Positions 3,433 through 64,000 of a stretch of 64,000 nt of DNA are shown here, piece by piece (positions within the stretch are counted from its first letter, which is position 1; every line of letters starts with the position of its first letter). The position numbers and the translations under genes are program-made. The notes beneath the pieces were generated by a model. It was given only the letters and a program-made list of their open reading frames with translations. It ran no database searches and had not been told where the DNA came from. Location: contig CAZRWP010000001.1 in assembly GCA_964603945.1 (NCBI GenBank), positions 59,623 to 123,622 on the forward strand, written 5' to 3'. This DNA comes from an uncultured Pseudomonadales bacterium. GTDB taxonomy: Bacteria; Patescibacteriota; Microgenomatia; UBA1400; UBA1396.

Positions 3433-5604
3433 ATGTATAAATTACAAGCTCCTTATCAGCCAGCTGGCGATCAGCCAAAAGCCATCCAAGAGATGACGCA
3501 AAATTACCTCTCCGGTCAAAAGGAGCAGGTCTTGCTGGGCGTTACCGGATCGGGCAAAACTTACACCATGGCAAACGTCGTGGTCAATTTAAACAAACCG
3601 ACCCTGGTTATTGCCCATAATAAAACATTAGCCGCTCAGCTATATCAGGAGTTTAGAGATTTTTTCCCAGAAAACGCTGTCAGTTATTTTGTCTCCTACT
3701 ATGATTTTTATCAGCCGGAAGCATACATCGTCACAACTGATACCTATATTGAGAAGGAAGCGCAAATTAATGAGGAAATTGATAAGTTGCGCCTGGCTAC
3801 AACGGCCAATTTGCTTTCCAGACCGGATTGTATTGTGGTGGCGTCAGTTTCCTGTATATATAACCTAGGACGCCCAGAAGATTTTGCCAATTTTGCCCTA
3901 GAAATTGTGGAGGGCGAAGTAATTTCCCGTCAAACTCTAATCACTCGCTTGGTAGACATGCAGTACCAACGGGTAACGGCTGAACTTATGCGCGGTACTT
4001 TTAGATTGCGCGGTGAGGCCGTTCAAGTCTGGCCAGCCAACGAAGAATGGGCATTTAATATCTTAATGCCAGGCAACAGCATCTCAAAAATTGAGAAGAT
4101 ACATCCATTGAGTGGTGATCTCTGGCCGATTCAGGCTTCGCAAAATCCTTACGAACCACGCCGACACACCATTTACCCGGCCAAACACTACATAGCCAGT
4201 CAAGATAGTGAAGGGGCAATTAAGCAGATTGAGGCTGATTTACAAACTCAACTCGTTAAGCTAAGAGCAGAAAATAAAATTCTGGAGGCTTATCGCCTGG
4301 AGCAACGCACCTTGCATGACCTCGATATGATTAAAGAGGTCGGTTACGTCAACGGAATTGAAAACTATTCCCGCTACTTTGATGGCCGCAAGCCTGGCGA
4401 CGCTCCATTTACATTGCTGAACTACATGCGCTGGAACGCTGAGAAATTTGGCGATGGCGAATTCTTAACCATTGTTGATGAAAGCCACATGACATTGCCG
4501 CAAGTCAGAGGCATGTATAACGGTGATCAAAGCCGCAAGACCACCCTAGTCGATTATGGTTTTAGATTGCCAGCGGCCATGGACAATCGCCCGCTGCACT
4601 TTGATGAATTTTTGGATCGCACCAGTATGCTAGCTTATGTCTCCGCGACTCCGGCCAAATGGGAAGTTGAACACAGTCAAAATACCGTGGTGGAGCAGAT
4701 TGTTCGGCCAACTGGTTTGGTAGATCCTCAAGTGGAAATCAGGCCAATTAATAACCAAATTCCTGATCTTCTGCATGAAATTGTGGTCCGCAAAGAGCGC
4801 GGCCAGCGCGTTTTAGTAACTACCTTGACCAAAAAGATGGCCGAAACTTTATCCGAATATCTAAATGATGCCAAAAAGATGAATGAGCTACTGGAGCGTC
4901 ATGGCTACAACCCAACCGACGATATGCCCAAAGCTCAGTACCTGCACTCTGACGTCCAAACCCTGGAGCGCAGTGACATCTTGGATGATCTGCGCCGCGG
5001 TGAATACGACGTTTTAATTGGTGTTAACTTACTGCGCGAGGGACTCGACCTGCCGGAAGTGACTTTGGTGGCTATTTTAGACGCCGACCAGGAAGGCTTC
5101 CTGCGCTCCACCTCTGCCTTGATCCAAACCATGGGCCGTGCCGCCCGCCACGTTGAAGGCACGGTAATTTTATATGCCGACCGCATGACTGGATCCATGC
5201 AGGCGGCAATTGATGAGGTCGGGCGGCGGCGCGACATCCAACTGGCTTACAACGCCAAGCACGGCATTGACCCTAAAACCATCGCCAAACCGGTTCGCGA
5301 TCGCTTAATTGCTCAACAGGAAAAAGAAGAACTACCTGGTATTGAGGCTATTAACTTGAATCGCCGGTTGAGCCGAGGCTTTAATCGCCCAGGCGAAAAA
5401 CGAGCCAAACACGATGGACAAACAGTCGTGGCACTTAATAAACGCACCAGCGTGATCTTGGAGCAACTCGATCCAAACTCACTCACCCCAGAGGATAAAT
5501 CCAAACTGTCCAAGCAACTGACCCGTGCCATGAACTTAGCCTCCAAAGAATGGAACTTTGAGCTAGCGGCTCAAATCAGAGATACGATCGCCAAACTAAA
5601 ATAA
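3433..5604 (+). CDS. uvrB: Excinuclease ABC subunit B (UvrB)
   Basis: Walker A 'GVTGSGKT', helicase motifs, beta-hairpin region, C-terminal UvrB/UvrC interaction helix 'ELAAQIRDTIAKLK'; 723 aa. Confidence 0.9.
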   Translation: MYKLQAPYQPAGDQPKAIQEMTQNYLSGQKEQVLLGVTGSGKTYTMANVVVNLNKPTLVIAHNKTLAAQLYQEFRDFFPENAVSYFVSYYDFYQPEAYIVTTDTYIEKEAQINEEIDKLRLATTANLLSRPDCIVVASVSCIYNLGRPEDFANFALEIVEGEVISRQTLITRLVDMQYQRVTAELMRGTFRLRGEAVQVWPANEEWAFNILMPGNSISKIEKIHPLSGDLWPIQASQNPYEPRRHTIYPAKHYIASQDSEGAIKQIEADLQTQLVKLRAENKILEAYRLEQRTLHDLDMIKEVGYVNGIENYSRYFDGRKPGDAPFTLLNYMRWNAEKFGDGEFLTIVDESHMTLPQVRGMYNGDQSRKTTLVDYGFRLPAAMDNRPLHFDEFLDRTSMLAYVSATPAKWEVEHSQNTVVEQIVRPTGLVDPQVEIRPINNQIPDLLHEIVVRKERGQRVLVTTLTKKMAETLSEYLNDAKKMNELLERHGYNPTDDMPKAQYLHSDVQTLERSDILDDLRRGEYDVLIGVNLLREGLDLPEVTLVAILDADQEGFLRSTSALIQTMGRAARHVEGTVILYADRMTGSMQAAIDEVGRRRDIQLAYNAKHGIDPKTIAKPVRDRLIAQQEKEELPGIEAINLNRRLSRGFNRPGEKRAKHDGQTVVALNKRTSVILEQLDPNSLTPEDKSKLSKQLTRAMNLASKEWNFELAAQIRDTIAKLK

Positions 5605-7035
5605 AGTACTTGTCTTTAAAAATTGACTTGATGGTATTTCCAAAATATTATCTGGCAAATTTTTTATACTTTCCGGGTCATCTTCATACACCATAATTGG
5701 TTGCGGATGATTTGGGTACATAATAGATAACATATGATTAAAATTTATGGCTTGAGAAACTTGTCTAGAAACTCCCCAGGTAGCAACAGGTGCTAATTCA
5801 TCATTGGTAAAAACAACTACAGTATCATCATTTAAGCTCGGATAATTTTGATTAAAATACTCAGATACCTGTCTGGCTATCTGAGGTCGATGAATACTAT
5901 AGTGAGCTTGATGATATAAACGCAAACTTACAATATTAAGCAGAAGAAAAATTCCCAGCATTATCTGACTCCATCTTATGGTCTGCCTGGTTGAAATAAA
6001 TGAGACTAATCCACTCAACATCAGTAAAGTCATAGATTGTCCTAGGACATACTTATGTCCAGGAAGAAATATTATAGGTAATAATGAGACTGCATAGCCC
6101 GCAATAATTAACCAAAAATATTTATTTCGCCAAACTTTAGCTCGCCAAAAAACAAAAATCCAAGTTGCAATCGTAATTAATAATAAGATCAGAAGCCACC
6201 AACCCCAAATTGGAAAAGCTGTAAAATATTGCGGAAGAATGCGTAAACCACTACTCACATAATCTAGTAACATTTCAGGTGCGCCCAAATTCCAAATGCT
6301 ATACCAAGAAAACGTATGAATCGCTCTAAAAGGCGAAAAATTCCATACATAAGCCTGCCCGCCAACTGCTTCAGTACCTAATACTAATAATCTAAGTGGC
6401 AAATATGCAGCTAACACAGCAATAAATGGCACAAGGTGAGACAGTTTTTTTACCGATTTTATTTTTGAGAATATAAATAAAATTAAAGGAAATACAACTG
6501 CACTTTCTTTTGAAGCTAAAGCTAACACAAAACACAACAAGCTCAGCCACGTTGTTGTCCAATCAGTTTTCTTAAAATACAGATAAATCCCTAATACCAC
6601 AAAAAATAGCATTAAAATTTCCTGAAAAGCTGATAAATAAAATACTCTTGTAAATTGACTGGCAGAGAATGCAAAGATAAAAGTTCCTATTGTAGCCGCT
6701 CGGCTGGATTCAAAAATCAATTTCCATAGATACCAAACTAAAATTACTGTTCCAGCAAGTATTAGTAGCGAAAACAGATAATATGGCCAGGCTGATAGTC
6801 CAAACAAGTTCTGAAACAGTCCAAAAAATAGTTGAGTGCTTAGAGGTCGATACATCGGGGTGCTTAAGTCATTTTGCCAAAAGGAAAAAGCTTGAAACAA
6901 TTTCCACCAAGGCACATCTTTGGTCAAATTTAGAAAATACCAATCGTCACTCCAAAAGAAACTCCGAAGTGACACTGCATGAAACAATAACAAACAAAGA
7001 GCTAAATATGTAGCTGGATGACGAAAAACATTCAC
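5596..7035 (-). CDS. Polytopic membrane GT-C-fold glycosyltransferase-like protein (PMT_2/TMTC-like family, paralog of 44298..46115)
   Basis: Multi-TM; shares 'F-W-(S/D)-DD', 'Y(R/K)PL' and 'SKE(S/T)..FPL' motifs with ORF 44298..46115; gene is markedly AT-richer than neighbours. Confidence 0.5.
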   Translation of the reverse strand: MNVFRHPATYLALCLLLFHAVSLRSFFWSDDWYFLNLTKDVPWWKLFQAFSFWQNDLSTPMYRPLSTQLFFGLFQNLFGLSAWPYYLFSLLILAGTVILVWYLWKLIFESSRAATIGTFIFAFSASQFTRVFYLSAFQEILMLFFVVLGIYLYFKKTDWTTTWLSLLCFVLALASKESAVVFPLILFIFSKIKSVKKLSHLVPFIAVLAAYLPLRLLVLGTEAVGGQAYVWNFSPFRAIHTFSWYSIWNLGAPEMLLDYVSSGLRILPQYFTAFPIWGWWLLILLLITIATWIFVFWRAKVWRNKYFWLIIAGYAVSLLPIIFLPGHKYVLGQSMTLLMLSGLVSFISTRQTIRWSQIMLGIFLLLNIVSLRLYHQAHYSIHRPQIARQVSEYFNQNYPSLNDDTVVVFTNDELAPVATWGVSRQVSQAINFNHMLSIMYPNHPQPIMVYEDDPESIKNLPDNILEIPSSQFLKTSTLF

Positions 7036-11603: not shown

Positions 11604-11716
11604 TGAGAAGGACCGAGAAGGACCGAGAAGGATCATCCTTGCCCCTCCGCTAGCCTGGAAGGATCATCCTAGGATGATCCTTCTTGAGGAAAACAAGGGC
11701 AAGGATGATCCTTCTC
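11604..11716. repeat. Nested-palindrome intergenic repeat element, copy 1 (forward orientation)
   Basis: GAAGGATCATCC-TTGCCC-spacer-GAAGGATCATCCTAGGATGATCCTTC-spacer-GGGCAA-GGATGATCCTTC; 12-mer occurs 4x (2 direct, 2 inverted); perfect 24-bp central palindrome; preceded by GACCGAGAAG tandem; near-identical copies at 57796..57917 and 63320..63413. Confidence 0.8.
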
Positions 11717-11749
11717 TCGTAATATTAGACAATCTTGAAACTAATTAAA

Positions 11750-12292
11750 TTACACCCGTAAATAGGCAAAACTGCGTACAGGATGACCTAGCAACACCTC
11801 AACCAGTTCCGAAACCGAGCCGGCCGGAGCTGAGGCTGGCGCTTCAATGCCCTGTTGAGCCAATAGATTAAATAACGCTTGGCGCACTTGGCCACGGTGA
11901 TACTGTTCAGCATTCTGGTGGATATATCGTAAAATTTCTTCAGCGGCACTAAAAAGACTGCGTTGCTCAATCTCTTCCAGGCTTATCCGATGAATTATTT
12001 CCAAAATGGCTGATATATCTCTTAGAACCGTTAACTCCGATTGGCTGGGTAGGAGACTTTCTTCTAAGCGAACCTCGGTTAACAATTTTGTTTCTCCCAG
12101 GGAAATCCAATGAAAGGAAATGCGCGAGGCTGGCTGTAAAGCTGAGCCACGGCGTGAAGTAATTTTACGCACACCTTTAGCCAAACATGTCAAACGACCA
12201 TACTCAGGGGTGAGAATGTCAATCCAGCGGTCCTGTTCACGATAATTTCGTGTTTTTAAGACTAAGCCAGTAGAGGTGACGGATTGAGGCAC
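11750..12292 (-). CDS. recO: DNA repair protein RecO
   Basis: N-terminal OB-fold 'GLVLKTRNYREQDRWIDILTPEYGRL' typical of RecO; 180 aa (short, C-terminal Zn motif not evident). Confidence 0.7.
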   Translation of the reverse strand: MPQSVTSTGLVLKTRNYREQDRWIDILTPEYGRLTCLAKGVRKITSRRGSALQPASRISFHWISLGETKLLTEVRLEESLLPSQSELTVLRDISAILEIIHRISLEEIEQRSLFSAAEEILRYIHQNAEQYHRGQVRQALFNLLAQQGIEAPASAPAGSVSELVEVLLGHPVRSFAYLRV

Positions 12293-12301
12293 TTAACCAG
12301 T

Positions 12302-14575
12302 TTACTCGACCTTCACGGTCATGTCTTTATCCAGAATAAACTCAACTTGGCCTTCCGGCGTAGTTAGCTCAAACGGAATCGGATCGGTTCCAGCTTGCTT
12401 TTGCATACGCAAAGCATATTCTTCGCCAGAATATGGAATATTCAAAGTTGCTCTAATCCTGGCTTGGCCCATAGGTGCCAGTTTAAAGAATCCTTCAATA
12501 ATGTCGTAACCTTCATGAGAATCATCAATCGTGTGACCATTCTCAAAACCAACCAACTCTTGAACAGTGGTGCCTTTAGGCACGTACCAACGAGTCCAGT
12601 TGTTCAGATTGGCATTCAAACACAACAACCCGGCTTCCAGATTACAATTGGAGGCGGCGTGGGTATTGCGGTAAGTCAGCTCCACTTGCTTGGTGAGACT
12701 GCCATTTTCCATACTTTCAACTACTTGACTACCCTCAACCTCGGTAAATAGATTTGACTTGGCACCGCCCAGGTTGGCATCAATAATTGTCAGATAGTCC
12801 TGACCTTCTTCCACCTGAGGAATAATTCCGGCGGCATTAATTGACTCTGCGGCCAACTGCTTGTCTTCATCTAAGAAATAAAATTGGGTATGACGGCCTT
12901 CAATACTTTCCCATAAAAGTTCTGCTAGTAACGGCCATTTATCGCGGGAAGTCGCGTAAGTTTTTTGAATAATTGACTGCATCATAGGAGCCAAAATTCC
13001 CTTGCGGTCTTCGCGGTGATAAGGCGTCGGCCGGTCAATAATTTCTGACAAGGCATAAATAATCTGAGGACAGTCACAGCGGGGATCGTTTTCCGCCGAG
13101 AAAGTACCATAGCCGGGCACTTCAATAGGTCCCAGAACCTCAACAATCTCCGCTAACAAAACCGTATCTACGGAAATAATGCCATCGATATCATCGGGTT
13201 CACCAGGAATATCTTGGTAATATGAATAAACTGTTTTCATCGACTCAGAAAAGTTGGGATCCATGTTCATGTCACGCAAATTCCAACGGGACTCAGTGGT
13301 GAGATATTTTCCCAAAATCTCCGGAATCGGCGGCTTGTTGCGGAACTTCTGATCTACCTCATAGATATCATCTGATTTCTCTGGCGTCAGCTTGCCGTCT
13401 TCCACGTACACCACGGCATAGGCGGTCATAAATCCGCCGGTGGGACGTAGTTCATTATCATTTTGGAAAATAATCAGGTATTTTTGGCGTTCACCGGCGC
13501 CAGCCATCGCAGGCAATTGTTCAATCACCGGGCGGAAATCGGTCAAAGCAACTTCGGCGGCGGCGGCTCCGTCATGCAGTTGTTGAACATATGAGCGCAC
13601 CGGATAACCGGAAAATTCAACCGGGTAATCAGCTGGATCAATAACTTGGACATGGGAATTCATCTCCTCGACCTTAGCGCCAATGGCATCCAGTTGAGGG
13701 GTAATCTGCTGAAGAGTTTCCAGCATCAGGCCAATCCTGTCTTCCGTGGTGCCGCCTTCAAAACTGCCCTCACCGGTAAAACCTAAAACGTCGGCGTGGG
13801 GTTCAATCGCTGACACGGTCAAAAGTCCGGCCTCGACACCTGCTACGCCAGCTTTTAGACCAGCCGAACCATCATGATAATACTTGCCAACGAAAGGCAG
13901 TGAACCGGTCCATTTAAGGGCTTCAAATTCCTGTTGGCTGGCTTCCAATCGCTGTTTGGTATTCTCCAAATGCAATTTCGTGGCTGGTAAATTCTGAGAT
14001 TTGAATGAGTCATAGGCAATCCGGCCTTCAGTTGCTGCCTGCTGTAGCTCCGCCTTTACAACCTGCGCTTGAGCATAACTGTGCCAGGCAACTAAACTGA
14101 CGAGTACTAGCAAAACCAATAAACCGCCAGTTACTGAGCCGAGCAATTTATAGTTTCGTCTCTGCTGGTCGGACAAATTACCCCACCACTGCTTGTAATC
14201 AAATGATTTTAATCTGGCCCAAGTATTTACTGCCTGAGAAGTTGAATCATTTCCTGAAGAAGTCATGATTTGTTTCCTTTTGAGGTTGTTGGTCTTGACT
14301 GGTTCAATCTCTTTAACTTGACTATCTTTTGCTTGATTAGCTTTGGTTACTCGATTATTTGTCTGACCATCTTTTTCTTGACTGACTTTCATCGGACCAT
14401 CTTTTGTCTGGCTATCATTTGCTTGTTCATCATCCCAAGCCTTAAAAACACCAGCTTGACCATTTGAAACGGGAGTATCAATGGTTTCAGCATCACTCTC
14501 GGGTAAATCCGAGTTTTTTAGCGAATGTTTTTTCCAGATCGGAGCGAAATCATCTTTTGACATAACGACAGACAA
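12302..14575 (-). CDS. Large membrane-anchored extracytoplasmic protein (possibly DUF4012-like)
   Basis: ~150-aa polar K/Q-rich N-terminal region, one TM helix (LLVLLVLVSLVAW), ~580-aa C-terminal ectodomain; family call is low-confidence recollection. Confidence 0.5.
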   Translation of the reverse strand: MSVVMSKDDFAPIWKKHSLKNSDLPESDAETIDTPVSNGQAGVFKAWDDEQANDSQTKDGPMKVSQEKDGQTNNRVTKANQAKDSQVKEIEPVKTNNLKRKQIMTSSGNDSTSQAVNTWARLKSFDYKQWWGNLSDQQRRNYKLLGSVTGGLLVLLVLVSLVAWHSYAQAQVVKAELQQAATEGRIAYDSFKSQNLPATKLHLENTKQRLEASQQEFEALKWTGSLPFVGKYYHDGSAGLKAGVAGVEAGLLTVSAIEPHADVLGFTGEGSFEGGTTEDRIGLMLETLQQITPQLDAIGAKVEEMNSHVQVIDPADYPVEFSGYPVRSYVQQLHDGAAAAEVALTDFRPVIEQLPAMAGAGERQKYLIIFQNDNELRPTGGFMTAYAVVYVEDGKLTPEKSDDIYEVDQKFRNKPPIPEILGKYLTTESRWNLRDMNMDPNFSESMKTVYSYYQDIPGEPDDIDGIISVDTVLLAEIVEVLGPIEVPGYGTFSAENDPRCDCPQIIYALSEIIDRPTPYHREDRKGILAPMMQSIIQKTYATSRDKWPLLAELLWESIEGRHTQFYFLDEDKQLAAESINAAGIIPQVEEGQDYLTIIDANLGGAKSNLFTEVEGSQVVESMENGSLTKQVELTYRNTHAASNCNLEAGLLCLNANLNNWTRWYVPKGTTVQELVGFENGHTIDDSHEGYDIIEGFFKLAPMGQARIRATLNIPYSGEEYALRMQKQAGTDPIPFELTTPEGQVEFILDKDMTVKVE

Positions 14576-53225: not shown

Positions 53226-54902
53226 TTAGACATTGCCTTCAATGGAATTGATAATCACCAGTACGAGCGGCTCCTTTTCCGATTCTTGGCGGATTCGGTA
53301 ACGGATGTCGTTTTTAATTTGAATAGGCAAATCTTTAGCCTCTTGTCCATTTTTGGCCAGTGTTTCGCGGACAGTTTCCCGTACAATTTGGTATAACTGC
53401 TCCTGCTCTTCAGGAGAAGTCAGGCCTAAGCCTCTTTCTTCAACCGACATATTGTTGAGGTCATAATTACCGGCCACTTCGTTCATCGCCACCACAATTA
53501 CACCCTGCTTGCCCAAAATTTCGCGATCAGCCAACACCTGATCCATCACTTGACTGGTTGTGCCAGCTACTGTGATCGTTCGTTCCCTCAACTTAATTTC
53601 TTTACCATAGCGGAAACCGTTGGCGTCTAGTTCAACTGGCTTACCATAATGAGGTAAAACAATCTGATTAAGGTTATAGCCGTGATGCTCGACCACATGG
53701 CTAAAACGTACGCGGTGACGTTCTTCACCGCCAATCGGGAATAGATATTTTGGCTTCAACAGGTGAACCATGAGCATCTGCTCATACTCACCAGCGTGGC
53801 CGGAAACGTGCAAATCGTCATCCACGTCTGAATAAGCCACGTCGATACCCTTTTCGGCTAATTCATCAATAACACCATAGACGTTGATTTCATTACCGGG
53901 AATTGGTTCCGAGGCAACGATCACCTTGTCGCCGCGATGAATGTTGACCAGGCGGTGCTCGCCGGAAACGGCTCGCACCAGCGAAGATCCAGCCTGTCCC
54001 TGACTGCCAGCGACCACTAAACAAATCTGGTCATCCGGCACTCCATCTAGGTTCCGTTTGTTGAGTTTGATATTGGGTGGGAAATTTAGCAGACCCATAT
54101 TCATGGCTGTGTTTACATTCTGCTCAACCGAACGGCCAATAAAGCTGATCTTGCGGTCAAACTCTGAGGCCACATCAATTACCTGCTGAACGCGGTGCAA
54201 ATTGGAACTCATTAAGGTCACAATTACCTTGCCTTTAACATCATGCATTTCACGCCGCAAAGTGCCGCGTAGAACCGATTCAGACGCCGTGGGATCACGG
54301 CGCTCAATGCGCAGACAATCCAGCAAAGCGCACAGCACTCCTTCGCGGCCAATATTGGCAATTTTTTGCAGATCCATGTGCTGACCGTCAACTGGCGTTA
54401 AGTCGATCTTAAAATCAGACCCGTGGTAAATCACACCTTCCGGCGTGCGGATCACCAAGTGACGAGTGTCGGGCACTGAGTGAGTTACGCGAATTGTCTC
54501 AAAGGTGAACGGTCCCAATTTTAGCTGGCCATCATCAAAGTACTGGACTTCCTTTTCAATATCCTGATCAGCCAAACGAGTCATAGCAAACTCAGCCGTT
54601 AAAGGCGAGCCATAAATCGGCACATCCACGCCGATCTCTCGTAAGACATACGGCAAGGCGGCGATATGGTCATCATGACCGTGAGATAGGACAATACCGT
54701 GCAGAGTCGCGCCAGCGGCTAAACGATCCTGCAGATACTGTGTATCGGGCACCAGGATGTCAACGCCAGGCATTTCCATCGGCGCAAAGCCGATTCCGCA
54801 ATCGACAACAACCATATCATCGCCGAGCTCGTAAACAAACATGTTTTTAGTGACACGTCCAATGCCACCCATGGGGAATATTTTTAACATAAATGTGTTC
54901 AT
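53226..54902 (-). CDS. rnj: Ribonuclease J (metallo-beta-lactamase/beta-CASP)
   Basis: 'IVLSHGHDDHIAALP' HxHxDH motif, beta-CASP and C-terminal domain, 558 aa. Confidence 0.85.
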   Translation of the reverse strand: MNTFMLKIFPMGGIGRVTKNMFVYELGDDMVVVDCGIGFAPMEMPGVDILVPDTQYLQDRLAAGATLHGIVLSHGHDDHIAALPYVLREIGVDVPIYGSPLTAEFAMTRLADQDIEKEVQYFDDGQLKLGPFTFETIRVTHSVPDTRHLVIRTPEGVIYHGSDFKIDLTPVDGQHMDLQKIANIGREGVLCALLDCLRIERRDPTASESVLRGTLRREMHDVKGKVIVTLMSSNLHRVQQVIDVASEFDRKISFIGRSVEQNVNTAMNMGLLNFPPNIKLNKRNLDGVPDDQICLVVAGSQGQAGSSLVRAVSGEHRLVNIHRGDKVIVASEPIPGNEINVYGVIDELAEKGIDVAYSDVDDDLHVSGHAGEYEQMLMVHLLKPKYLFPIGGEERHRVRFSHVVEHHGYNLNQIVLPHYGKPVELDANGFRYGKEIKLRERTITVAGTTSQVMDQVLADREILGKQGVIVVAMNEVAGNYDLNNMSVEERGLGLTSPEEQEQLYQIVRETVRETLAKNGQEAKDLPIQIKNDIRYRIRQESEKEPLVLVIINSIEGNV

Positions 54903-54983: not shown

Positions 54984-55610
54984 CTAAAATAGGGCTTCTT
55001 TTATGCTCTCAATTTGTTCAGCCTGGCTTTCCCGCTGGCCAATATAAGCCAAGGCTTTAGGTATTTTGCCAATATCTTGGCTAAATGCCTCCTTTAGCTT
55101 GCCATTTCTAAGCGCCGCCGCTGGGTGATAAATTGGCAAGACATATATTATGCGCCCTTTCCAGCGGATCCGCTTCAGAACTCCGTGGACTAAGGTTATT
55201 TTAGCCTCAGGTAGAAAAAAATTTAGACTGAATCTGCCTAATGTAACAAACAATTTAGGCTTGATTAAGTCAATTTCTTCCAGCAAAAATGGTAAATAAG
55301 CTTTTATTTCGTCTAGCTGTGGATCGCGGTTGCCTGGCGGCCTCACCTTGACGATATTGCTGACATATAAATCTGGCCTAGCTAGACCATTTTCCTCAAG
55401 CGTCCGGTTAAATAACTGACCAGATCGTCCGACAAACGGAATGCGCTGCTTTGCCTCCTCAGCTCCTGGCGCCTCGCCAATCACCATTATTTGAGAGTGC
55501 AAATTACCTTGACCAATCACGATATCCTGGGGAACCTGGCAAAGTGGTAGATCGTCACAACGCGACTCCATTAGTTTTAATAACTTCGCGTGCTGATCTT
55601 CTCTCGTCAT
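54984..55610 (-). CDS. Uracil-DNA glycosylase, family 4
   Basis: 'VIGEAPGAEEAKQRIPFVGRSGQLF' family-4 UDG motif A and C-terminal 'HPAAALRN' motif. Confidence 0.75.
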   Translation of the reverse strand: MTREDQHAKLLKLMESRCDDLPLCQVPQDIVIGQGNLHSQIMVIGEAPGAEEAKQRIPFVGRSGQLFNRTLEENGLARPDLYVSNIVKVRPPGNRDPQLDEIKAYLPFLLEEIDLIKPKLFVTLGRFSLNFFLPEAKITLVHGVLKRIRWKGRIIYVLPIYHPAAALRNGKLKEAFSQDIGKIPKALAYIGQRESQAEQIESIKEALF

Positions 55611-55934
55611 GCTGAATCTCTATTGTATCAGGTTAAAAAACTGCAAATTTGCGGTGTCAAAAATTGCGGGGAAAGTACATTACAACAGCTTTGACAATAA
55701 AAATACAGAGTTGAATTGAAGGCTGTTGAACAGATAAGGTCATAAAAGTGTTGAACCTGTCCACTAGCACCATCTCCACTTACTATTTGAGACAATTTCA
55801 AGCACCACAAGACATAAATTCTCCCTATTTTGAAATATCTAATTCAGCTTTTAACTGCTGTAGATCAACCTATTCTTATAAGTTACTAAAAAATATTTCA
55901 GCTGAAAAGGCTGATTGGTAAGAGTTGGTAATTT

Positions 55935-56654
55935 ATGGCTTATCGCTCAAACCGCTACGATAACCGCCGACCAAAATATAAAAAACCACCAGAATCACGA
56001 CCTTCAAGACCTCAGTCTTTTGCCAAACACCGTTATGATTTTGGAGACAAAGAAAAACGAGAAATAAGAGAGGTAACTGGAGACCGATGTCTCCGCTGTG
56101 GAATTCAAGAGCATGAGTTAGATTTACTTCTAGCGCAAGCTTGTGAAAAGTGTGATCTAAATGACGCTGACAAAAATTGCAATAGTGGCTGTGACATTAC
56201 CAGTGATCGTCATCTGGAGATTCATCATACTGTCTCAAAATGGTTTGCAGCCGAAAATAAAATGGATTCCAAGGTGATTGGAAGCCTGAACATGGGTGTT
56301 TGTCTTTGTAATGAATGCCACAAAATTATGGATCGATTAGCTCAACAACCAGACTCAGAAGATGATCTCAGAACACTTTATGAACTCGGAAAGCGTGATC
56401 TATCGACTCAAGAAATTACAAATCTCTTCAGAAGAGCTAGAACTAAAAGTTACTTGGCTGAAATTTTACGTATTTGGTACAACCGCGACATGATTGTCAA
56501 TGGATTGGAACCAGAATTTTTGCCTCAGCCAGACAGAATTTTATTAAGAACAGCCCAAGCCAAAGCTCTAATCAAAGAACAACAAAAAAGAGAGAAGTCA
56601 AATTCTCGCATGCGCAAACACCAACCACAAGGGCAATATTACGAGCTTCGCTAA
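55935..56654 (+). CDS. HNH endonuclease-domain protein with basic N- and C-termini (low-GC gene)
   Basis: 'CLRCG..LEIHHTVSKW..N..CLCNECH' HNH CxxC/HH/CxxCH pattern; gene ~40% GC with 324-bp AT-rich upstream spacer containing TTGAC-like direct repeats. Confidence 0.6.
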   Translation: MAYRSNRYDNRRPKYKKPPESRPSRPQSFAKHRYDFGDKEKREIREVTGDRCLRCGIQEHELDLLLAQACEKCDLNDADKNCNSGCDITSDRHLEIHHTVSKWFAAENKMDSKVIGSLNMGVCLCNECHKIMDRLAQQPDSEDDLRTLYELGKRDLSTQEITNLFRRARTKSYLAEILRIWYNRDMIVNGLEPEFLPQPDRILLRTAQAKALIKEQQKREKSNSRMRKHQPQGQYYELR

Positions 56655-56658
56655 CTAT

Positions 56659-57789
56659 TTAGTACGTCGGCAGGAAAAATTTAACATTATCCTGATTAAT
56701 CACAACTTGAGGCAAATTTTTCTCCAGACGTAATCTGGCGGCCTTGGCCACCGCTCCCTTGAGATTGCGTTCCAGCGTACGAATTCCGGCGTCAAAACCT
56801 AACGGACGAACCATAGTTGGCCAAACATCTTCAGCAATAATCAGTGAATTAGCATCCATGCCGGCTTCCTGCAGAAGTTTGGGCATGACGTAACGCTGGG
56901 CAATCACCGTTTTTTCATCATCACTGTAAGAAGGCATGTCAATCCGCTCGACCCGGTCCATCACGGCCGTGGCAATTGAGCGGGTATTGTTAGCAGTGGC
57001 AATAAACAAGACCTGAGACAAATCCACGGGGTAATCCAAATAGTGGTCAATGAAGGCATAATTCTGCTTGGGATCCAAGAGCTCAACCAGCACACCCATG
57101 ATGTCCATCCGAGCATCTTCCGCAACCCGGTCAATTTCATCTAAAAGCATAACTGGATTTCGAGTTTTGGCTTCCGCCAGACCTTTAACCACCCAGCCAG
57201 GTTCTGCTTCTAGGTGCAGTCTGGATTGGCCACGCAGGTCGCGCGCCGATCCCATTCCGCCAAAAGGAATACGGACGATTTCGCGCCCCATGGCCTCGGC
57301 AATAGAGTAAGCAAAGGTGGTTTTACCGGTTCCTACCAGACCTACTAGCAGGACAATTGGCGCGCGTATCTGACCACGCTCCAGCGTGTCTGACTGAGCG
57401 GCCTGCTCAGCCTGTTGTTTTTGAAATTTAAGAATGGCAATGTACTCCAAGATGCGATCCTTAACCGATTGCATACCATAGTGATGCTTTTCAAAAATCT
57501 GCTTAGCTTGCTCTAAATCCAGCGTGTCTTCCGTGGTAACTTCCCAGGGAACTTGAGTCGCCCAATCTATGTATTTGGTTGTGCGCTCATAAGCTTCACT
57601 GTAATTTTGCGTCTGGGCGGCGCGCTCTAATAAACGAATTTCCCGATCTAATTTTTGCTTAAGATCGTCTGGCGCCGTGGAATCAGCAATCCGCTGTTTT
57701 AAAGCACTAATCTCATCGCTCACTACCTGATCAGGCACATTATTGGTCATTGAAATATTGTCATCAGCCATACAGATACTATAAACCAT
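56659..57789 (-). CDS. Lon-homologous AAA+ ATPase lacking both LON N-terminal (PUA-like) and C-terminal protease domains
   Basis: Aligns to Lon central helix + AAA+ module: 'YIDWATQVPW', 'HYGMQSVKDRILEYIA', Walker A 'LVGLVGTGKTT', Walker B 'MLLDEID', 'FDAGIRTLERNL' sensor-2 region; stops where Lon protease domain would begin, 4 nt from convergent HNH gene; start set at MVYSIC outside repeat. Confidence 0.7.
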   Translation of the reverse strand: MVYSICMADDNISMTNNVPDQVVSDEISALKQRIADSTAPDDLKQKLDREIRLLERAAQTQNYSEAYERTTKYIDWATQVPWEVTTEDTLDLEQAKQIFEKHHYGMQSVKDRILEYIAILKFQKQQAEQAAQSDTLERGQIRAPIVLLVGLVGTGKTTFAYSIAEAMGREIVRIPFGGMGSARDLRGQSRLHLEAEPGWVVKGLAEAKTRNPVMLLDEIDRVAEDARMDIMGVLVELLDPKQNYAFIDHYLDYPVDLSQVLFIATANNTRSIATAVMDRVERIDMPSYSDDEKTVIAQRYVMPKLLQEAGMDANSLIIAEDVWPTMVRPLGFDAGIRTLERNLKGAVAKAARLRLEKNLPQVVINQDNVKFFLPTY

Positions 57790-57795
57790 CGGATG

Positions 57796-57917
57796 AGAAG
57801 GATCACTGCTAAGAAGGATCATCGCCAAGAAGGATCATCCTTGCCCCTCCTCTTGCCTGGAAGGATCATCCTAGGATGATCCTTCTTGAGGAAACCAAGG
57901 GCAAGGATGATCCTTTA
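57796..57917. repeat. Nested-palindrome intergenic repeat element, copy 2 (forward orientation)
   Basis: Same architecture as 11604..11716 (GAAGGATCATCC x4 around CCTAGG-centred palindrome, TTGCCC/GGGCAA inner inverted repeat); preceded by degenerate AAGAAGGATCATC tandem; ~35 bp upstream of Lon-like ORF start. Confidence 0.8.
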
Positions 57918-57980: not shown

Positions 57981-58397
57981 ATGGTCGCCGTGGGAGCAAT
58001 AGTCCAATTAAAGGGAACTAATAAAATTTTACTGATCAAACGAAATGAAAATGAGGACTGGCAACCTGGCGAATGGGAAATTCCTTATGGTCGGATCGAC
58101 CAGTTTGAGGACTTGAGCACCGGACTTAGGCGAGAGGTTAAAGAAGAAACTGGCCTCACAAACCTGAAAATTGGAAATATTCTTACCAATTGGCATATTT
58201 TTAGAGGTCAAAAATCAGCTCATAACGAAATTATTGGCTTAACCTTTGTCTGCGAGACTTCCCATGAAAAAATTAAACTCTCTTTTGAGCATTGCGAGTA
58301 TCAATGGTGTGAACCAGAAGAAGCGATTAAATTAATTTCCACTGAGGGTATTAAGCGCGATGTCTTGGCTTTCATTGATCAGATTTCAAAATTTTAG
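57981..58397 (+). CDS. NUDIX hydrolase
   Basis: Nudix box 'GRIDQFEDLSTGLRREVKEETGL' (GX5EX7REUXEEXGU). Confidence 0.75.
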   Translation: MVAVGAIVQLKGTNKILLIKRNENEDWQPGEWEIPYGRIDQFEDLSTGLRREVKEETGLTNLKIGNILTNWHIFRGQKSAHNEIIGLTFVCETSHEKIKLSFEHCEYQWCEPEEAIKLISTEGIKRDVLAFIDQISKF

Positions 58398-58548: not shown

Positions 58549-60858
58549 TTAACTGCGTCCGCCACCGTAGCTACCGCCGCGTCCGCCGCGGTCGCTTCGA
58601 CCACCGCTTCGACGATCTCCACCACGGCCGCCACGATCTCCGCCATAGCCACCTCGACCGCCGCGGTCGCTTCGACCACTGCCGTCATCTTGGCGTCCGC
58701 CACTGCGACCACCACTGCTATCGCCGCGGTCTCCACCGCCTTGCTGGCGGCGTTCTTGGCGTTCAGCCTCAGCTTGCTCACGTTCTTCTTTGGAAAGCAT
58801 GGTCAGGCGAACTCGGTCGCCATCAACTTCCAAAACCTCAACGTGAACGACATCATCCAGATTAACCACTTCATGTGGATCACGGACATAACCGGTTGCC
58901 ATCTGAGAAACGTGAACCAAGCCATCGCGGCCTGGCACCATTTCCACAAAGGCACCGTATTCCTCAATCCGGGTAACTTTACCATCAAATTCCATGCCTG
59001 GTTCAAAGGTCATCATCATGTTACGGATGGCGTGAACAGCGCGATCAATGTCTTCCTGGATTGGTGAAGCCACCGTGACTCGGCCATCTTCATCAACCGA
59101 GATCTCTGTCTTGGTTGATTCCTGCAAACTTCGGATGTTTTTGCCTCCGGGACCGATCAGCTCGCCGATCTGGCTAACCAGAATCTGTACAGCTTCAATC
59201 TTGGGGGCATTAGCGGCCAATTCCTTACGGGGCTCAGGCAGACATTCGAGCATCTTGCCTAAAATGTGCAAGCGGCCGATTCTAGCCTGTTCTAAGGCCT
59301 CAGTCATCACTTCCATTGGGATGCCATCAATCTTGATATCCATCTGAATAGCGGTTATGCCTTCATCTGTTCCGGCAACCTTAAAGTCCATATCACCGAT
59401 ATGATCTTCCAGTCCCTGAATGTCAGAGAGCACGACGTACTCATTGGTGTCATCATTGCGCATTAAGCCCATGGCGATTCCCGCCACCGGCTTGCGGATT
59501 GGCACACCGGCCGCCATCAGTGACAGCGTACTGCCACAGACAGAAGCCTGGGAGGTAGAACCGTTAGAACTCATGACTTCTGACACCACATGAATGGTAT
59601 AAGGGAATTCTTCCTGAGACGGGATAACCGGGAGCAAAGCTCGTTCGGCTAGGGCGCCATGGCCGATTTCGCGGCGCTTGGGCCAACCAACACGGCCGGT
59701 TTCACCAGAGGCAAAGGGAGGCATGTTGTAGTGGTGAATGTAACGCTTCTCCTCTTCACCTTCCATGTCTTCAATTAGTTGAGCAAAGGCGGGAGAAGCC
59801 AAAGTTGTAATCGTTAAGACCTGAGTTGCACCGCGTTTGAACATGGCTGAGCCATGTGCAGTCGGCAGTAAATCAACTTCACAGGTAATCTCGCGGATTT
59901 GATCAGTTTGGCGTTCATCTGGACGAATTCGCTCTTCAAAGGTACGGCGGCGAGCTTCCCTCTTCATTAGTAAGCTGAAAATCTCTCCAAGCGGAGCCTC
60001 TTCCAAAGCCTCGTCCTCGGCAATCAGTTTTTCCTTGAGTTTAGCGATGGTGTCATCTTGAGGCTGAAGCAAAGCTTTAGCTTTAACGGCTTGCGCAATT
60101 TCTGACTGATGATTCTTCCAAATCTTCTCAATTAATTCTTCATCCAGTTGAGGGGCCTCAAAGACTGATTTCTCTTTGCCGATGGCTGATTTCATCTCTT
60201 TTAAGACCGAGTTTATGCCCTTGATTTGTTCATGAGCCGCTTCCAGGGCTTTCACCATTTGGGCTTCACTTACCTCAAGCGCACCAGCCTCAACCATAAC
60301 AATGGCTTTATCCGTACCAGCGACAATCAAGTCGAGGGCAGAATCAGTCAATTCTTCATAGGTCGGGTTGTAGGTGAATTTGTCTTCTTTGGGCAAATAA
60401 CCTACGCGCAGACCACTGATTGGTCCGTTGAAGGGAATTGAAGAAATTTCCAGCGCGGCCGTGGTGGCAACTAAGGCCAGCATGTCCGGGTTGTTAACGC
60501 TATCAACCGATAAAACAGTGGCGATAACCTGAACTTCTCGCTTATAACCGTCTGGGAACATCGGACGAATACTTCGGTCAATGACGCGGGCGCTCAGAAT
60601 GGCTTCATCCGAAGGGCGGCCTTCACGCTTGACCCAGCGACTGCCTTTAATTTTGCCGCCAGCGTACAGTTTTTCAATGTACTCGACTTGCAGGGGGAAC
60701 CAACCTAAATTGGATTCACCGCCAAGAGCCACCGTGGCGTGGACAACAGTCCCGCCACATTTGGCTAACACGGCTGCTTCTGCTTGTTGGCTAAAGCGGC
60801 CGACTTCTAGGAGAATTTCTTTTTCTCCAATAGGAATGGAAAATTGTTTTACTTCCAT
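58549..60858 (-). CDS. pnp: Polyribonucleotide nucleotidyltransferase (PNPase) with ~70-aa C-terminal RGG/RG-rich tail
   Basis: Two RNase PH domains, KH and S1 domains; C-terminus 'GGGDRGDSSGGRSGGRQDDGSGRSDRGGRGGYGGDRGGRGGDRRSGGRSDRGGRGGSYGGGRS' encoded by imperfect DNA repeats (58552-58760). Confidence 0.9.
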   Translation of the reverse strand: MEVKQFSIPIGEKEILLEVGRFSQQAEAAVLAKCGGTVVHATVALGGESNLGWFPLQVEYIEKLYAGGKIKGSRWVKREGRPSDEAILSARVIDRSIRPMFPDGYKREVQVIATVLSVDSVNNPDMLALVATTAALEISSIPFNGPISGLRVGYLPKEDKFTYNPTYEELTDSALDLIVAGTDKAIVMVEAGALEVSEAQMVKALEAAHEQIKGINSVLKEMKSAIGKEKSVFEAPQLDEELIEKIWKNHQSEIAQAVKAKALLQPQDDTIAKLKEKLIAEDEALEEAPLGEIFSLLMKREARRRTFEERIRPDERQTDQIREITCEVDLLPTAHGSAMFKRGATQVLTITTLASPAFAQLIEDMEGEEEKRYIHHYNMPPFASGETGRVGWPKRREIGHGALAERALLPVIPSQEEFPYTIHVVSEVMSSNGSTSQASVCGSTLSLMAAGVPIRKPVAGIAMGLMRNDDTNEYVVLSDIQGLEDHIGDMDFKVAGTDEGITAIQMDIKIDGIPMEVMTEALEQARIGRLHILGKMLECLPEPRKELAANAPKIEAVQILVSQIGELIGPGGKNIRSLQESTKTEISVDEDGRVTVASPIQEDIDRAVHAIRNMMMTFEPGMEFDGKVTRIEEYGAFVEMVPGRDGLVHVSQMATGYVRDPHEVVNLDDVVHVEVLEVDGDRVRLTMLSKEEREQAEAERQERRQQGGGDRGDSSGGRSGGRQDDGSGRSDRGGRGGYGGDRGGRGGDRRSGGRSDRGGRGGSYGGGRS

Positions 60859-61449: not shown

Positions 61450-62460
61450 TTAACCTAAATGCCTTTTTAGGAAATTAACAACATATTGCCTAAGTTGAAA
61501 ACCGAGGTCTTGACCAGTTGTTAAATATACCTTTAAATTATCAACTTGCTCAGCTGTTAATCGGTTTTGTTTTAATTCCTCATACAACTCAGTTATTATT
61601 TCTGCTTGTTCAATACCAGTCATTTCTTTTTTAGCCGCTGAAACTCTTGCATGGCCTAAATTTCTTAAATCAGAAATAAGCTCTTCAATTGTTGGCTGAT
61701 AATCAGGCTGTCTAAACCTAGCAAGCTTATCTCTGACGTTTTTCTGTGACTCCAGTAGTATTAATAAATGTTTTCGGGCTTTCTGAAGATTGCCTAATAT
61801 TTCTTGTAATTCTGAATGTATCTTTTCTTTAAGTTCAGATCTTATCAATTTGTTTGACTCAGAAAATAATGGCTTAAATTGAATATAAAATCGAAAGGCT
61901 GATTCCTTAAATGCTTTTTGCACTTCACTTTCATCAGCACCTGGCTTGATACCCAAGATTCTGTATGGAGTTACTTTAGATGGCTGATTATTGCCAAGCC
62001 TGTAAACTCTCCAAACTTCTAACTCTTCTTCCATAATATCAAGCAAGCTTGATATTTCATTTTCTGTAAGAGTCTTCTTAACTTTGTCTTTATTCAGACG
62101 GCTAATCAATTTCACCCTGGCGATGTTTAGATTTTTTTGTATTTCACCAACTTCATTTAATAATTCAATAGAAACTTTTCGATTTTGATCAAAATTAAAA
62201 ATTTTTGCCAGCTGCCGATGGGCATATATAATCTCATCCTCTCTCGCATCTGCTTGAACATTTAGCACCACTTCTGGCTCTACCTCTGACCAGTTTATTT
62301 TCTCATCAAGTTCTAATCCTGATTCCCGCCTTATTCTGGCTTTGTATTCGTTCAACCGATGTATGAGATCATATTCAGTTTGCGCCCATCTTTCTTGATC
62401 GTCATCTCGTTTTGGTCTAATAGGCCTGGTTGAACCCTCGTTGTTACCTCTATGTTTCAT
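61450..62460 (-). CDS. hypothetical protein encoded in low-GC segment adjacent to tRNA-Met
   Basis: 336-aa helical/charged protein, no clear domain (weak J-domain-like 'YRILGIKPGADESEVQKAFK' without HPD); local AT content visibly higher than flanks. Confidence 0.45.
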   Translation of the reverse strand: MKHRGNNEGSTRPIRPKRDDDQERWAQTEYDLIHRLNEYKARIRRESGLELDEKINWSEVEPEVVLNVQADAREDEIIYAHRQLAKIFNFDQNRKVSIELLNEVGEIQKNLNIARVKLISRLNKDKVKKTLTENEISSLLDIMEEELEVWRVYRLGNNQPSKVTPYRILGIKPGADESEVQKAFKESAFRFYIQFKPLFSESNKLIRSELKEKIHSELQEILGNLQKARKHLLILLESQKNVRDKLARFRQPDYQPTIEELISDLRNLGHARVSAAKKEMTGIEQAEIITELYEELKQNRLTAEQVDNLKVYLTTGQDLGFQLRQYVVNFLKRHLG

Positions 62461-63222: not shown

Positions 63223-63319
63223 CGGTCCTCCTCCCTGTTCTTTTAAAGGTATTACACCTACGACATGAAAGAAGGCGGTAAGGGAGCAGTAATGGCTGAG
63301 TAGGGAGATTTGTGTTGGT

Positions 63320-63413
63320 GAAGAAGGATCATCCTTGCCTTTAATTTACTCAAGAAGGATCATCCTAGGATGATCCTTCCAGGCAAGAGACGGGGCAAGG
63401 ATGATCCTTCTTC
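63320..63413. repeat. Nested-palindrome intergenic repeat element, copy 3 (inverted orientation)
   Basis: Reverse-complement arrangement of copies 1/2: GAAGGATCATCC-TTGCC..spacer..AAGAAGGATCATCCTAGGATGATCCTTCC..spacer..GGGGCAAGGATGATCCTTCTTC. Confidence 0.75.
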
Positions 63414-63851: not shown

Positions 63852-64000
63852 CTTATGATGCTTTGGCTGAAGCACGCAATTCTCGGATTACATTAACCGT
63901 AACCGCTCCCGGATACTGCATATCGTCCTGGATCTTCTGAGCCACCTTTTGGGCGACTACCTGCAGGTCTCGATCTGTAGTCTTGTCTGGATTGAGGATA
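63852..64000 (-). CDS. rny: Ribonuclease Y, C-terminal end only (gene continues beyond window)
   Basis: Minus-strand frame reads '..DLQVVAQKVAQKIQDDMQYPGAVTVNVIRELRASAKAS*' matching the conserved RNase Y C-terminus 'YPGQIKVTVIRETRAV'. Confidence 0.55.

Follow-up and report, generated by a model that had tools for sequence, protein, structure and literature searches.

An intact stand-alone Lon-type AAA+ ATPase gene from a conserved, uncharacterised family in Patescibacteria

We analysed a 64,000-nucleotide stretch of DNA (the window) that comprises positions 59,623 to 123,622 of contig CAZRWP010000001.1 (assembly GCA_964603945.1), which was deposited as an uncultured Pseudomonadales bacterium and is placed by GTDB in the Microgenomatia (Patescibacteriota; UBA1400; UBA1396). 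The minus strand of the window contains an open reading frame (ORF) equivalent to the central ATPase module of a Lon protease, without the N-terminal and proteolytic domains. An initial annotation of the sequence had offered two explanations for this ORF, a recent insertion of an HNH element that truncated lon, or a true Lon-like AAA+ protein that has no protease and is partnered with a nuclease. We conclude that the ORF is an intact member of a family of AAA-only proteins and not a broken Lon protease, because no remnants of the missing domains are found, the family members are matched in size and share the same end point, the gene is under purifying selection, and the arrangement recurs in six assemblies. 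Thus, an ORF that contains only the middle of Lon is the normal state in these bacteria and not the product of truncation or assembly error. Very probably, the gene encodes a functional, vertically inherited, stand-alone AAA+ ATPase that was derived from LonA, is an old paralogue of Lon, and would operate as an ATP-driven remodelling ring.

Results

The open frame extends from a TTG codon at 57828 to position 56659 on the minus strand (389 amino acids (aa)) and is not broken at any point. The TTG codon shares 4 nt with copy 2 of a repeat described below, and two in-frame ATG codons, at 57789 (376 aa) and 57771 (370 aa), are both likelier starts. The usual start of the family (M-[STAD]-D) falls at 57771 when the protein is aligned with its relatives, and we use 56659..57771 for the gene here. 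A start at 57789 is also possible, because the six residues that precede position 57771 are also present in one relative with 81% identity.

The 370-aa protein consists of the LonA three-helix bundle, the nucleotide-binding domain and the lid. Its N-terminal helical region (57490..57720, minus strand) corresponds to the C-terminal part of the LonA HI(CC) domain, as this domain is named in PMC6722904, according to both the alignment with EcLon(235-584) (PDB 6N2I) and an AlphaFold (AF2) model. The AF2 monomer model, built from a 15-sequence alignment, has a pLDDT of 78 and places helices at residues 15-30, 35-54 and 57-73, such that the ORF begins about 17 residues ahead of the bundle. All of the top Foldseek matches of this model are LonA or LONP1 AAA modules (TM 0.65-0.72). 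Similarly, a PDB search matched query residues 37-386 to LonA and LONP1 chains with an E-value of 1e-66, and all strong matches were LonA or LONP1. Pfam assigned the AAA domain (E 6e-18) and, weakly, Lon_lid (E 0.0016), whereas the protein had no match to LON_substr_bdg (PF02190) or Lon_C (PF05362). The curated models for endopeptidase La also matched only internally. TIGR00763 (‘lon’) aligned over positions 252-565 of 795 (E 3e-91, 307 bits versus a cut-off of 608) and NF008053 aligned over positions 247-579 of 784 (236 bits versus a cut-off of 891), so that the protein falls below both cut-offs. These results bear out the identification of the ORF as the middle of Lon in the initial annotation, including its Walker A, Walker B and sensor-2 motifs and its lack of both flanking domains. 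As it has neither an N domain nor a protease domain and scores under the curated cut-offs, the AAA-only protein should not be annotated as a Lon protease.

All of the catalytic residues of the LonA ATPase are retained. We counted motif conservation over 85 non-redundant family sequences and found that Walker A (GLVGTGKTT, 57316..57342), Walker B (LLDEID, 57130..57147), the sensor-1 Asn (56989-56991) and Arg finger (56953-56955) within 56953..56991, and the sensor-2 Arg (56779..56781), each on the minus strand, are invariant in 85 of 85; in Walker B this applies to the D, the E and the final D. Since these five elements are invariant, an active ATPase is expected. More distant AAA-only forms (P0136, P0149 and P0152) have LQGVGKT or LPGIGKT in Walker A. 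Other segments distinguish the family from LonA. Walker A of LonA reads GPPGVGKTS, and a signature block DIMGVLVELLDP is found where LonA has GDPSSALLEVLDP. In pore-loop 1 (RGQSRLHLEAEPG, 57196..57234, minus strand) a His occupies the position of the LonA Tyr. Across the family the RGHRRTY[VI] sequence of LonA is changed to RG-x-SRL-x-L, with one Arg fewer, and the residue at the Tyr position varies (H27, I18, L17, Y7, N5 and V4 among the 85 members), while three LonA references all have Tyr. The pore-loop-2 region reads DA[RN]xDIMG in the family, whereas two of the three LonA proteins compared have an aromatic residue there (D[WF]RGDP). Finally, the ORF stops at a position that aligns with the linker between the AAA and protease domains of LonA, and its tail (FLPTY-COOH, 56662..56676, minus strand) conforms to a family consensus of N-x-K-I-F-L-P-Q-Y-COOH in which the Pro is present in 84 of 85 sequences and the terminal Tyr in 79 of 85.

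A homologue search covering 5.8 billion proteins revealed that this architecture is general. The best 120 homologues (58-100% identity) are all 327-421 aa in length and contain AAA/Lon_lid domains only, and many of them sit inside contigs of 0.1-1.4 Mb; such locations, and the shared stop position, speak against their being mostly fragments of assembly. In addition, at least 555 matching stretches were present in GTDB species-representative genomes, the informative titles of which were Woesebacteria, Microgenomates, Pacebacteria, Paceibacterota, Cerribacteria and “Patescibacteria group”. The window protein bears every signature of the family, namely a length of about 350-400 aa, AAA and Lon_lid as its only domains, the GLVGTGKTT and DIMGVLVELLDP motifs and a C-terminal FLPxY. 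The N-terminal 15-60 residues are variable and often of low complexity, and some relatives carry Q/P-rich extensions of 100-320 residues. Comparison of the AAA gene with that of contigs from other strains of the same species identified 4-10 synonymous and 0-1 non-synonymous codon changes, demonstrating that the gene is under purifying selection. The initial annotation had also raised the prospect of a distinct non-Lon AAA+ family that is normally of this size. The size is indeed normal for the family, but the family is derived from Lon. We found no dedicated Pfam or NCBIfam model for it, and a non-exhaustive search of the literature brought up no paper on a patescibacterial Lon paralogue that lacks the protease. 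Database records label its members ‘AAA family ATPase’ or, wrongly, ‘ATP-dependent Lon protease’ (JGI records). The AAA-only family is thus an uncharacterised variant within the Lon/AAA+ world, and the window gene is an ordinary member of it.

Many of the species-representative metagenome-assembled genomes in which this Patescibacteria-type cluster is present (loci L013-L092) are titled ‘uncultured Pseudomonadales bacterium’, ‘Vitreimonas sp.’ or ‘Methylococcaceae bacterium’, and one isolate name contains ‘PATE’. Such non-patescibacterial titles look like taxonomic mislabels that are unfit for judging the distribution of the family.

The initial annotation had proposed comparing the synteny of this locus with that of close relatives. 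A separate full-length LonA is encoded on the same contig as the AAA-only gene in five relatives (L011, L015, L016, L048 and L176) whose AAA-only proteins are 67-83% identical to that of the window. These LonA proteins are 812-842 aa in length and contain the N domain, AAA, lid and Lon_C with the DGPSAG motif. In Woesebacteria-type relatives the two genes lie 6-9 kb apart, and in none of the loci examined was the AAA-only gene directly beside lon. Further LonA matches occurred on contigs that equal AAA-only contigs in size (699,001, 265,352, 155,667, 153,085, 88,509, 62,573, 46,475 and 16,550 bp), which suggests that the two genes coexist more widely. By BLASTP the AAA-only protein is 40-42% identical to other bacterial LonA proteins. 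As its identity to the AAA module of LonA from the same genome is just about 33%, the split between the two must be old.

The position of LonA in the organism studied here can be predicted. The 14-kb contig L176 has the order and orientation of the window and carries, in succession, the AAA-only gene, PNPase, S15, a few small genes, HU, RNase Y and, on the other strand, LonA. The window closes, over its final 500 nt, with the HU gene and then the terminal 140 nt of RNase Y. Because the window end is collinear with L175-L177 (81% nucleotide identity), in which LonA comes after RNase Y, we infer that the LonA gene of this organism would lie about 2-3 kb past position 64000; its presence is thus predicted on the basis of synteny. 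An exact 61-mer from the window end had no match in the metagenome contigs searched, and five LonA homologues with 73-75% identity to the query LonA (P0276-P0280) were on contigs that belong to other species or are too short to overlap the window.

The coexistence of the two genes raised the possibility that the AAA-only protein enters mixed hexamers with LonA, or forms an accessory ring on it, and thereby tunes its substrate choice or activity. The short distance between the genes in Woesebacteria-type relatives is compatible with such a partnership, as is the retention of the helical bundle and AAA module, which are the ring-contact parts according to LonA structures (PMC6722904). However, the low identity between the two proteins within one genome speaks against it, and the AAA-only gene is stably linked to genes for a uracil-DNA glycosylase (UDG) and RNase J rather than to lon. 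Gene fusions gave this idea no support either. We considered four proteins of 960-1675 aa (P0124, P0125, P0129 and P0133), each with two or three tandem AAA modules, as possible Rosetta-stone fusions of an AAA-only protein with Lon and rejected them, since their modules carry the LonA-type GPPGVGKT and RGHR[RK]TYIGAMPG sequences and have no AAA-only signatures. Because these modules are internal duplications of the LonA type, the tandem proteins imply no functional link. We therefore consider a partnership with LonA to be quite unlikely. Among the Pfam families listed for P0124, P0125 and P0129, Lon_C is present and the LON N domain is not, and the two AAA modules of P0129 are nearly identical. 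The AAA-only family has no relationship to these tandem-AAA Lon proteases.

If the window ORF were the residue of a disrupted lon gene, traces of the missing domains might be expected nearby. Two full-length LonA proteins served as tblastn queries under sensitive settings, and the N-terminal and protease regions of one patescibacterial LonA under default settings. The only sequence found in the 64-kb window was the AAA module itself; no Lon N-terminal or protease remnant was detected in any frame, either in 55600-56700 or elsewhere in the window. A minus-strand peptide, VSGDGASGQV, which the initial annotation had called faintly reminiscent of the Lon active-site region, as expected for a displaced remnant, was not recovered as protease sequence and its resemblance is due to chance. 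The concern that the junctions might be misassembled was dispelled by the finding that the arrangement recurs in L001-L004, L093 and L094, which are six independent assemblies from this species.

The gene that adjoins the 3′ end of the AAA-only gene is an HNH-like orphan of 239 aa (55935..56654, plus strand). As the initial annotation had described, the two genes are convergent with 4 nt between their stop codons, and an AT-rich leader of 324 bp precedes the HNH-like gene. This divergent intergenic region (55611..55934, 34% GC), which separates the UDG start from the HNH-like start and contains no Lon remnant, is presumably a promoter region. Since the inserted gene separates UDG from the AAA gene, UDG needs its own promoter here. 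The GC content of the HNH-like gene is about 40%, as had been noted, but its composition is not unusual; the 40.3% value is within one standard deviation of the mean of the window ORFs (43.7%, sd 3.8), and we rejected low GC as a mark of foreign origin.

The identification of this gene as an HNH endonuclease could be upheld only in part. The protein has the CxxC (56088-56099), HH (56223-56228) and CxxCH (56307-56321) elements of the Cys4 zinc-binding pattern, with its catalytic HH, that belongs to PF01844 (HNH) and PF13391 (HNH_2). Residues C52, C55, H97, H98, C125, C128 and H129 do not vary among five homologues that represent four lineages. Conversely, no match reached a curated threshold. 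The window protein had no match in Pfam or NCBIfam and PHROG HNH matches with E-values of 0.004 and 0.01; its homologues had sub-threshold matches to HNH and HNH_2 (E 0.0023-0.1 for HNH_2), and a PDB profile search returned no HNH protein but only chance zinc-ribbon matches. The AF2 model, built from a 4-sequence alignment, had a mean pLDDT of 44, too poor to judge a beta-beta-alpha-metal fold. An HNH-type zinc-finger nuclease is thus a plausible identity for this protein on the basis of its motif.

The HNH-like gene is present in all six contigs of the species, has no second copy in the window, was not found in viral contigs, and has just three homologues among the 5.8 billion database proteins. 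Most members of the AAA-only family have UDG directly downstream and no HNH-like gene. The AAA-UDG gap is about 30-150 nt in most genomes, while in L007 it holds two glycosyltransferase genes and in others assorted ORFs. In this slot, L005 and L048 have orthologues of 213-214 aa (25% identical to that of the window), L095 has one with 39% identity over the aligned part, and L011 has a minimal 138-aa form. For the genome pair that gave the 25% value, the neighbouring genes are far more similar (AAA proteins 80-83%, UDG 67%, RNase J 73% and PNPase 77%). The HNH-like gene, whose slot orthologues are 25-39% identical, is thus old, vertically inherited and fast-diverging. We conclude that it is restricted to one Woesebacteria subclade, where it resides in a variable slot. 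There was no sign of the recent mobility of a homing HNH element, in that all six contigs have the gene, that it is single copy in the window and was not found in viral contigs, and that its slot orthologues are divergent.

These observations bear directly on the idea that a recent HNH homing-type insertion cut lon and left an open middle fragment en route to becoming a pseudogene. The appeal of this explanation is positional, since the HNH-like ORF adjoins the AAA gene on its 3′ side, exactly where the LonA protease domain would continue. However, the FLPxY-stop end is common to the family, including loci that have no HNH-like gene, and the purifying selection on the AAA gene, the separate LonA of relatives, the want of any remnant in the window and the age of the HNH-like gene each contradict it. 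Together with the size of the family, these findings refute a recent truncation of lon, to which we assign next to no probability.

Single-base indels interrupt the HNH-like gene in three of the six same-species contigs (L001, ~5174-5890 in locus coordinates; L094, 1535-2260; and L093, 3113-3400), in T runs in the case of L001 and L094, whereas the AAA protein of these contigs has at most one amino acid change. The indels reflect decay, phase-like variation or homopolymer sequencing errors. This difference also argues against the proposal that the AAA+ and HNH-like genes constitute a two-gene defence or toxin module, a proposal that would fit their tight convergence in this species, in the L005 and L048 species and in L011. 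The genes are convergent, hence not co-transcribed, and most family members have no HNH-like gene at all. Moreover, PADLOC-DB 2.0 gave only generic AAA matches (E 1e-6 or weaker) for the AAA protein and nothing significant for the HNH-like proteins. A defence module is therefore very improbable. Of the second option in the initial annotation, the protease-less AAA+ protein stands, but a general pairing with a nuclease does not.

The stable neighbours of the AAA-only gene lie further downstream. We examined 10 kb on each side of the gene in 138 loci that had enough downstream sequence (sets of 79 and 59). A co-directional family-4 UDG gene was downstream in 111 of 138 loci (61/79 and 50/59), and a co-directional RNase J gene in 126 of 138 (72/79 and 54/59). 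The order AAA-only, UDG, RNase J is kept in about 80-90% of these loci, which span 50-100% protein identity. The AAA-UDG gap, with a median of 116 nt in the first 79 loci, is often 6-100 nt and in some cases just 6-30 nt. In the window, UDG (54984..55610; TIGR00758) and RNase J (53226..54902; TIGR00649), both with scores above the cut-offs, follow the AAA gene on the minus strand with the HNH-like gene interposed between AAA and UDG. The upstream side is less uniform. Woesebacteria-type genomes have the order rpsO-pnp-AAA, with PNPase, S15, RNase Y and HU directly upstream (PNPase is at 58549..60858 on the minus strand of the window), whereas sugar-phosphate genes occupy this side in other genomes. 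Promoter and terminator scans of the region gave nothing informative.

This gene order suggested a role linked to nucleic acids, in which the ring would work with UDG and RNase J, either freeing DNA or RNA of stuck proteins or remodelling an RNA-degradation or repair complex. The tight co-directional arrangement in most loci, together with the RNA and DNA genes upstream in the Woesebacteria type, argues for such a role. On the other hand, the order of housekeeping genes may persist without a functional link, the AAA-only protein contains no nucleic-acid-binding domain, and its pore loops show no gain in basic character over LonA, with one Arg lost from pore-loop 1. Thus, we regard this role as unlikely.

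The same loci were informative with regard to a split protease, in which the AAA-only ring would dock by its FLPxY-COOH tail onto a separately encoded peptidase ring, whether S16/Lon_C-like or other. ATP-dependent proteases that assemble in trans are well established, such as ClpX with ClpP and PAN with the 20S proteasome. In favour of this arrangement, all ATPase motifs are intact and the extreme C-terminus is conserved and aligned with the linker that leads into the LonA protease domain. However, no conserved peptidase neighbour was found within 10 kb on either side in the 138 loci; Lon_C was seen solely in full-length LonA, and no stand-alone Lon_C partner was present in the loci examined, whole genomes being outside this search. 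As the pore-loop aromatic residue is not conserved either, we give a split protease only a small chance.

Several other features of the neighbourhood were observed. Copy 2 of a 91-nt nested palindromic repeat (57825..57915) occupies the divergent intergenic region between the AAA-only gene and a NUDIX hydrolase gene, on the 5′ side of the AAA-only gene as the initial annotation had indicated. The three copies of this repeat in the window are all intergenic (11623-11713, 57825-57915 and 63319-63409, the last of which is inverted). They are composed of AAGGATCATCCT units, are preceded by short GAGAAGGAYC direct repeats and fold into a long hairpin (-55 kcal/mol, z = -6.2). Of 92 loci searched, a single one, the same-species contig L001, also contained the repeat. 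The element resembles REP or MITE sequences, is apparently confined to this species and has no evident relation to the architecture of the AAA gene.

Only in this species does a NUDIX hydrolase gene (57981-58397, plus strand) intervene between the genes for PNPase and the AAA-only protein; in L005 and L176, NUDIX genes occur at other positions. The product of the window gene matches the PADLOC candidate-defence profile PDC-S07 (E 4.6e-14), a match that may be due just to the generic NUDIX fold. PNPase, which varies from 730 to 801 aa among relatives, has an Arg/Gly-rich C-terminal tail of about 55-60 residues with GGDRGGRGG-type repeats (58549-58720). This tail is encoded by a stretch of 64% GC that the repeat finder classed as direct-repeat family D1. 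RGG-like tails are unusual for bacterial PNPase. A 336-aa ORF between rpsO and tRNA-Met (61450-62460, minus strand, 35% GC) resembles a J-domain weakly over two short stretches (NCBIfam E 4.5e-6 to 6e-4, far under the cut-offs) and matches no other family; since relatives such as L011 and L176 lack it at this site, it is a lineage-specific insertion. In many Paceibacteria-type relatives (e.g. L018, L027, L033, L042 and L051), UDG and RNase J are separated within the conserved cluster by about 900 nt, a gap that the window does not have. In L010 this gap contains a 279-aa gene (11749-12588) without a Pfam family.

Discussion

The AAA-only protein is best understood by comparison with LonA (E. 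coli Lon, Meiothermus taiwanensis LonA and human LONP1; MEROPS S16), with which it shares the three-helix bundle, AAA+ and lid at 33-42% identity, but from which it differs in having neither the N-terminal substrate-binding domain nor the S16 Ser-Lys protease domain. According to a survey from 2022 that covered subfamilies A, B, C and BA, every Lon has both ATPase and protease domains (PMC9569914). The closest structural equivalent is EcLon(235-584), with which the protein is nearly coextensive (query residues 37-386 align with residues 8-339 of 344). This fragment spans the NB and H domains together with the C-terminal portion of HI(CC), and was found as an open-ring hexamer in crystals with ADP (PMC6722904). 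Whereas 6N2I is a laboratory fragment produced by limited proteolysis, the AAA-only protein is natural, conserved and separately encoded, with signatures of its own. LonC of Meiothermus taiwanensis is likewise a member of the Lon family that lost one of the two activities, but in reverse. LonC is described as having protease but no ATPase activity (PMC3391209, PMC13069640), whereas the AAA-only protein keeps the ATPase motifs and has no protease.

Among more distant proteins, the likeness to ClpX, ClpB/Hsp104 and PAN is one of function only, as they belong to other AAA+ clades and have aromatic pore loops and defined N-terminal or adaptor domains. These are ring ATPases without a covalent protease, some of which dock a peptidase via short conserved motifs.

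In the mechanism that we propose, a paralogue of Lon was reduced to the three-helix bundle, the nucleotide-binding domain and the lid. By analogy with the equivalent LonA fragment 6N2I, the protein would assemble into a hexameric ring, and ATP hydrolysis would drive remodelling or unfolding of a client with no degradation in cis. In place of the Lon N domain, clients would be selected by the variable N-terminal tail, by the helical bundle or by an adaptor. A specialised client or docking partner is suggested by the pore loops, which are non-canonical but conserved, and by the conserved FLPxY-COOH tail. The HNH-like gene is a fast-evolving and possibly decaying occupant of the variable slot, and not the cause of the architecture.

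Several points weigh against this interpretation. The hexamer, the ATPase activity and the client are putative. The substrate-gripping aromatic residue of pore-loop 1 is a His here and is not conserved among the 85 members, and the pore-loop-2 aromatic is missing in the family; because the pore-loop aromatics are not conserved, classical threading of polypeptides is uncertain. In addition, the LonA gene of this organism was not seen, as the window ends inside RNase Y. Lastly, the conserved neighbours encode nucleic-acid enzymes, which hints at a role beyond general protein quality control.

A stronger version of the hypothesis holds that the protein is a near-essential, lineage-defining patescibacterial extractor or remodeller coupled to UDG and RNase J, or the motor of a trans-acting protease docked via FLPxY. 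We consider this version unlikely. If it were true, the AAA-only ring would have a task outside the range of classical Lon; it might strip proteins off damaged DNA or RNA, or act as the organiser of a degradosome-like complex.

The AAA-only gene is probably important to Patescibacteria, because it has been kept in hundreds of species with very small genomes and its catalytic residues are invariant. Labels such as ‘ATP-dependent Lon protease’ overstate the proteolytic capacity of these organisms. The family merits study as a natural counterpart of the isolated LonA ATPase fragment, and it could reveal what the Lon motor does when it is uncoupled from proteolysis.

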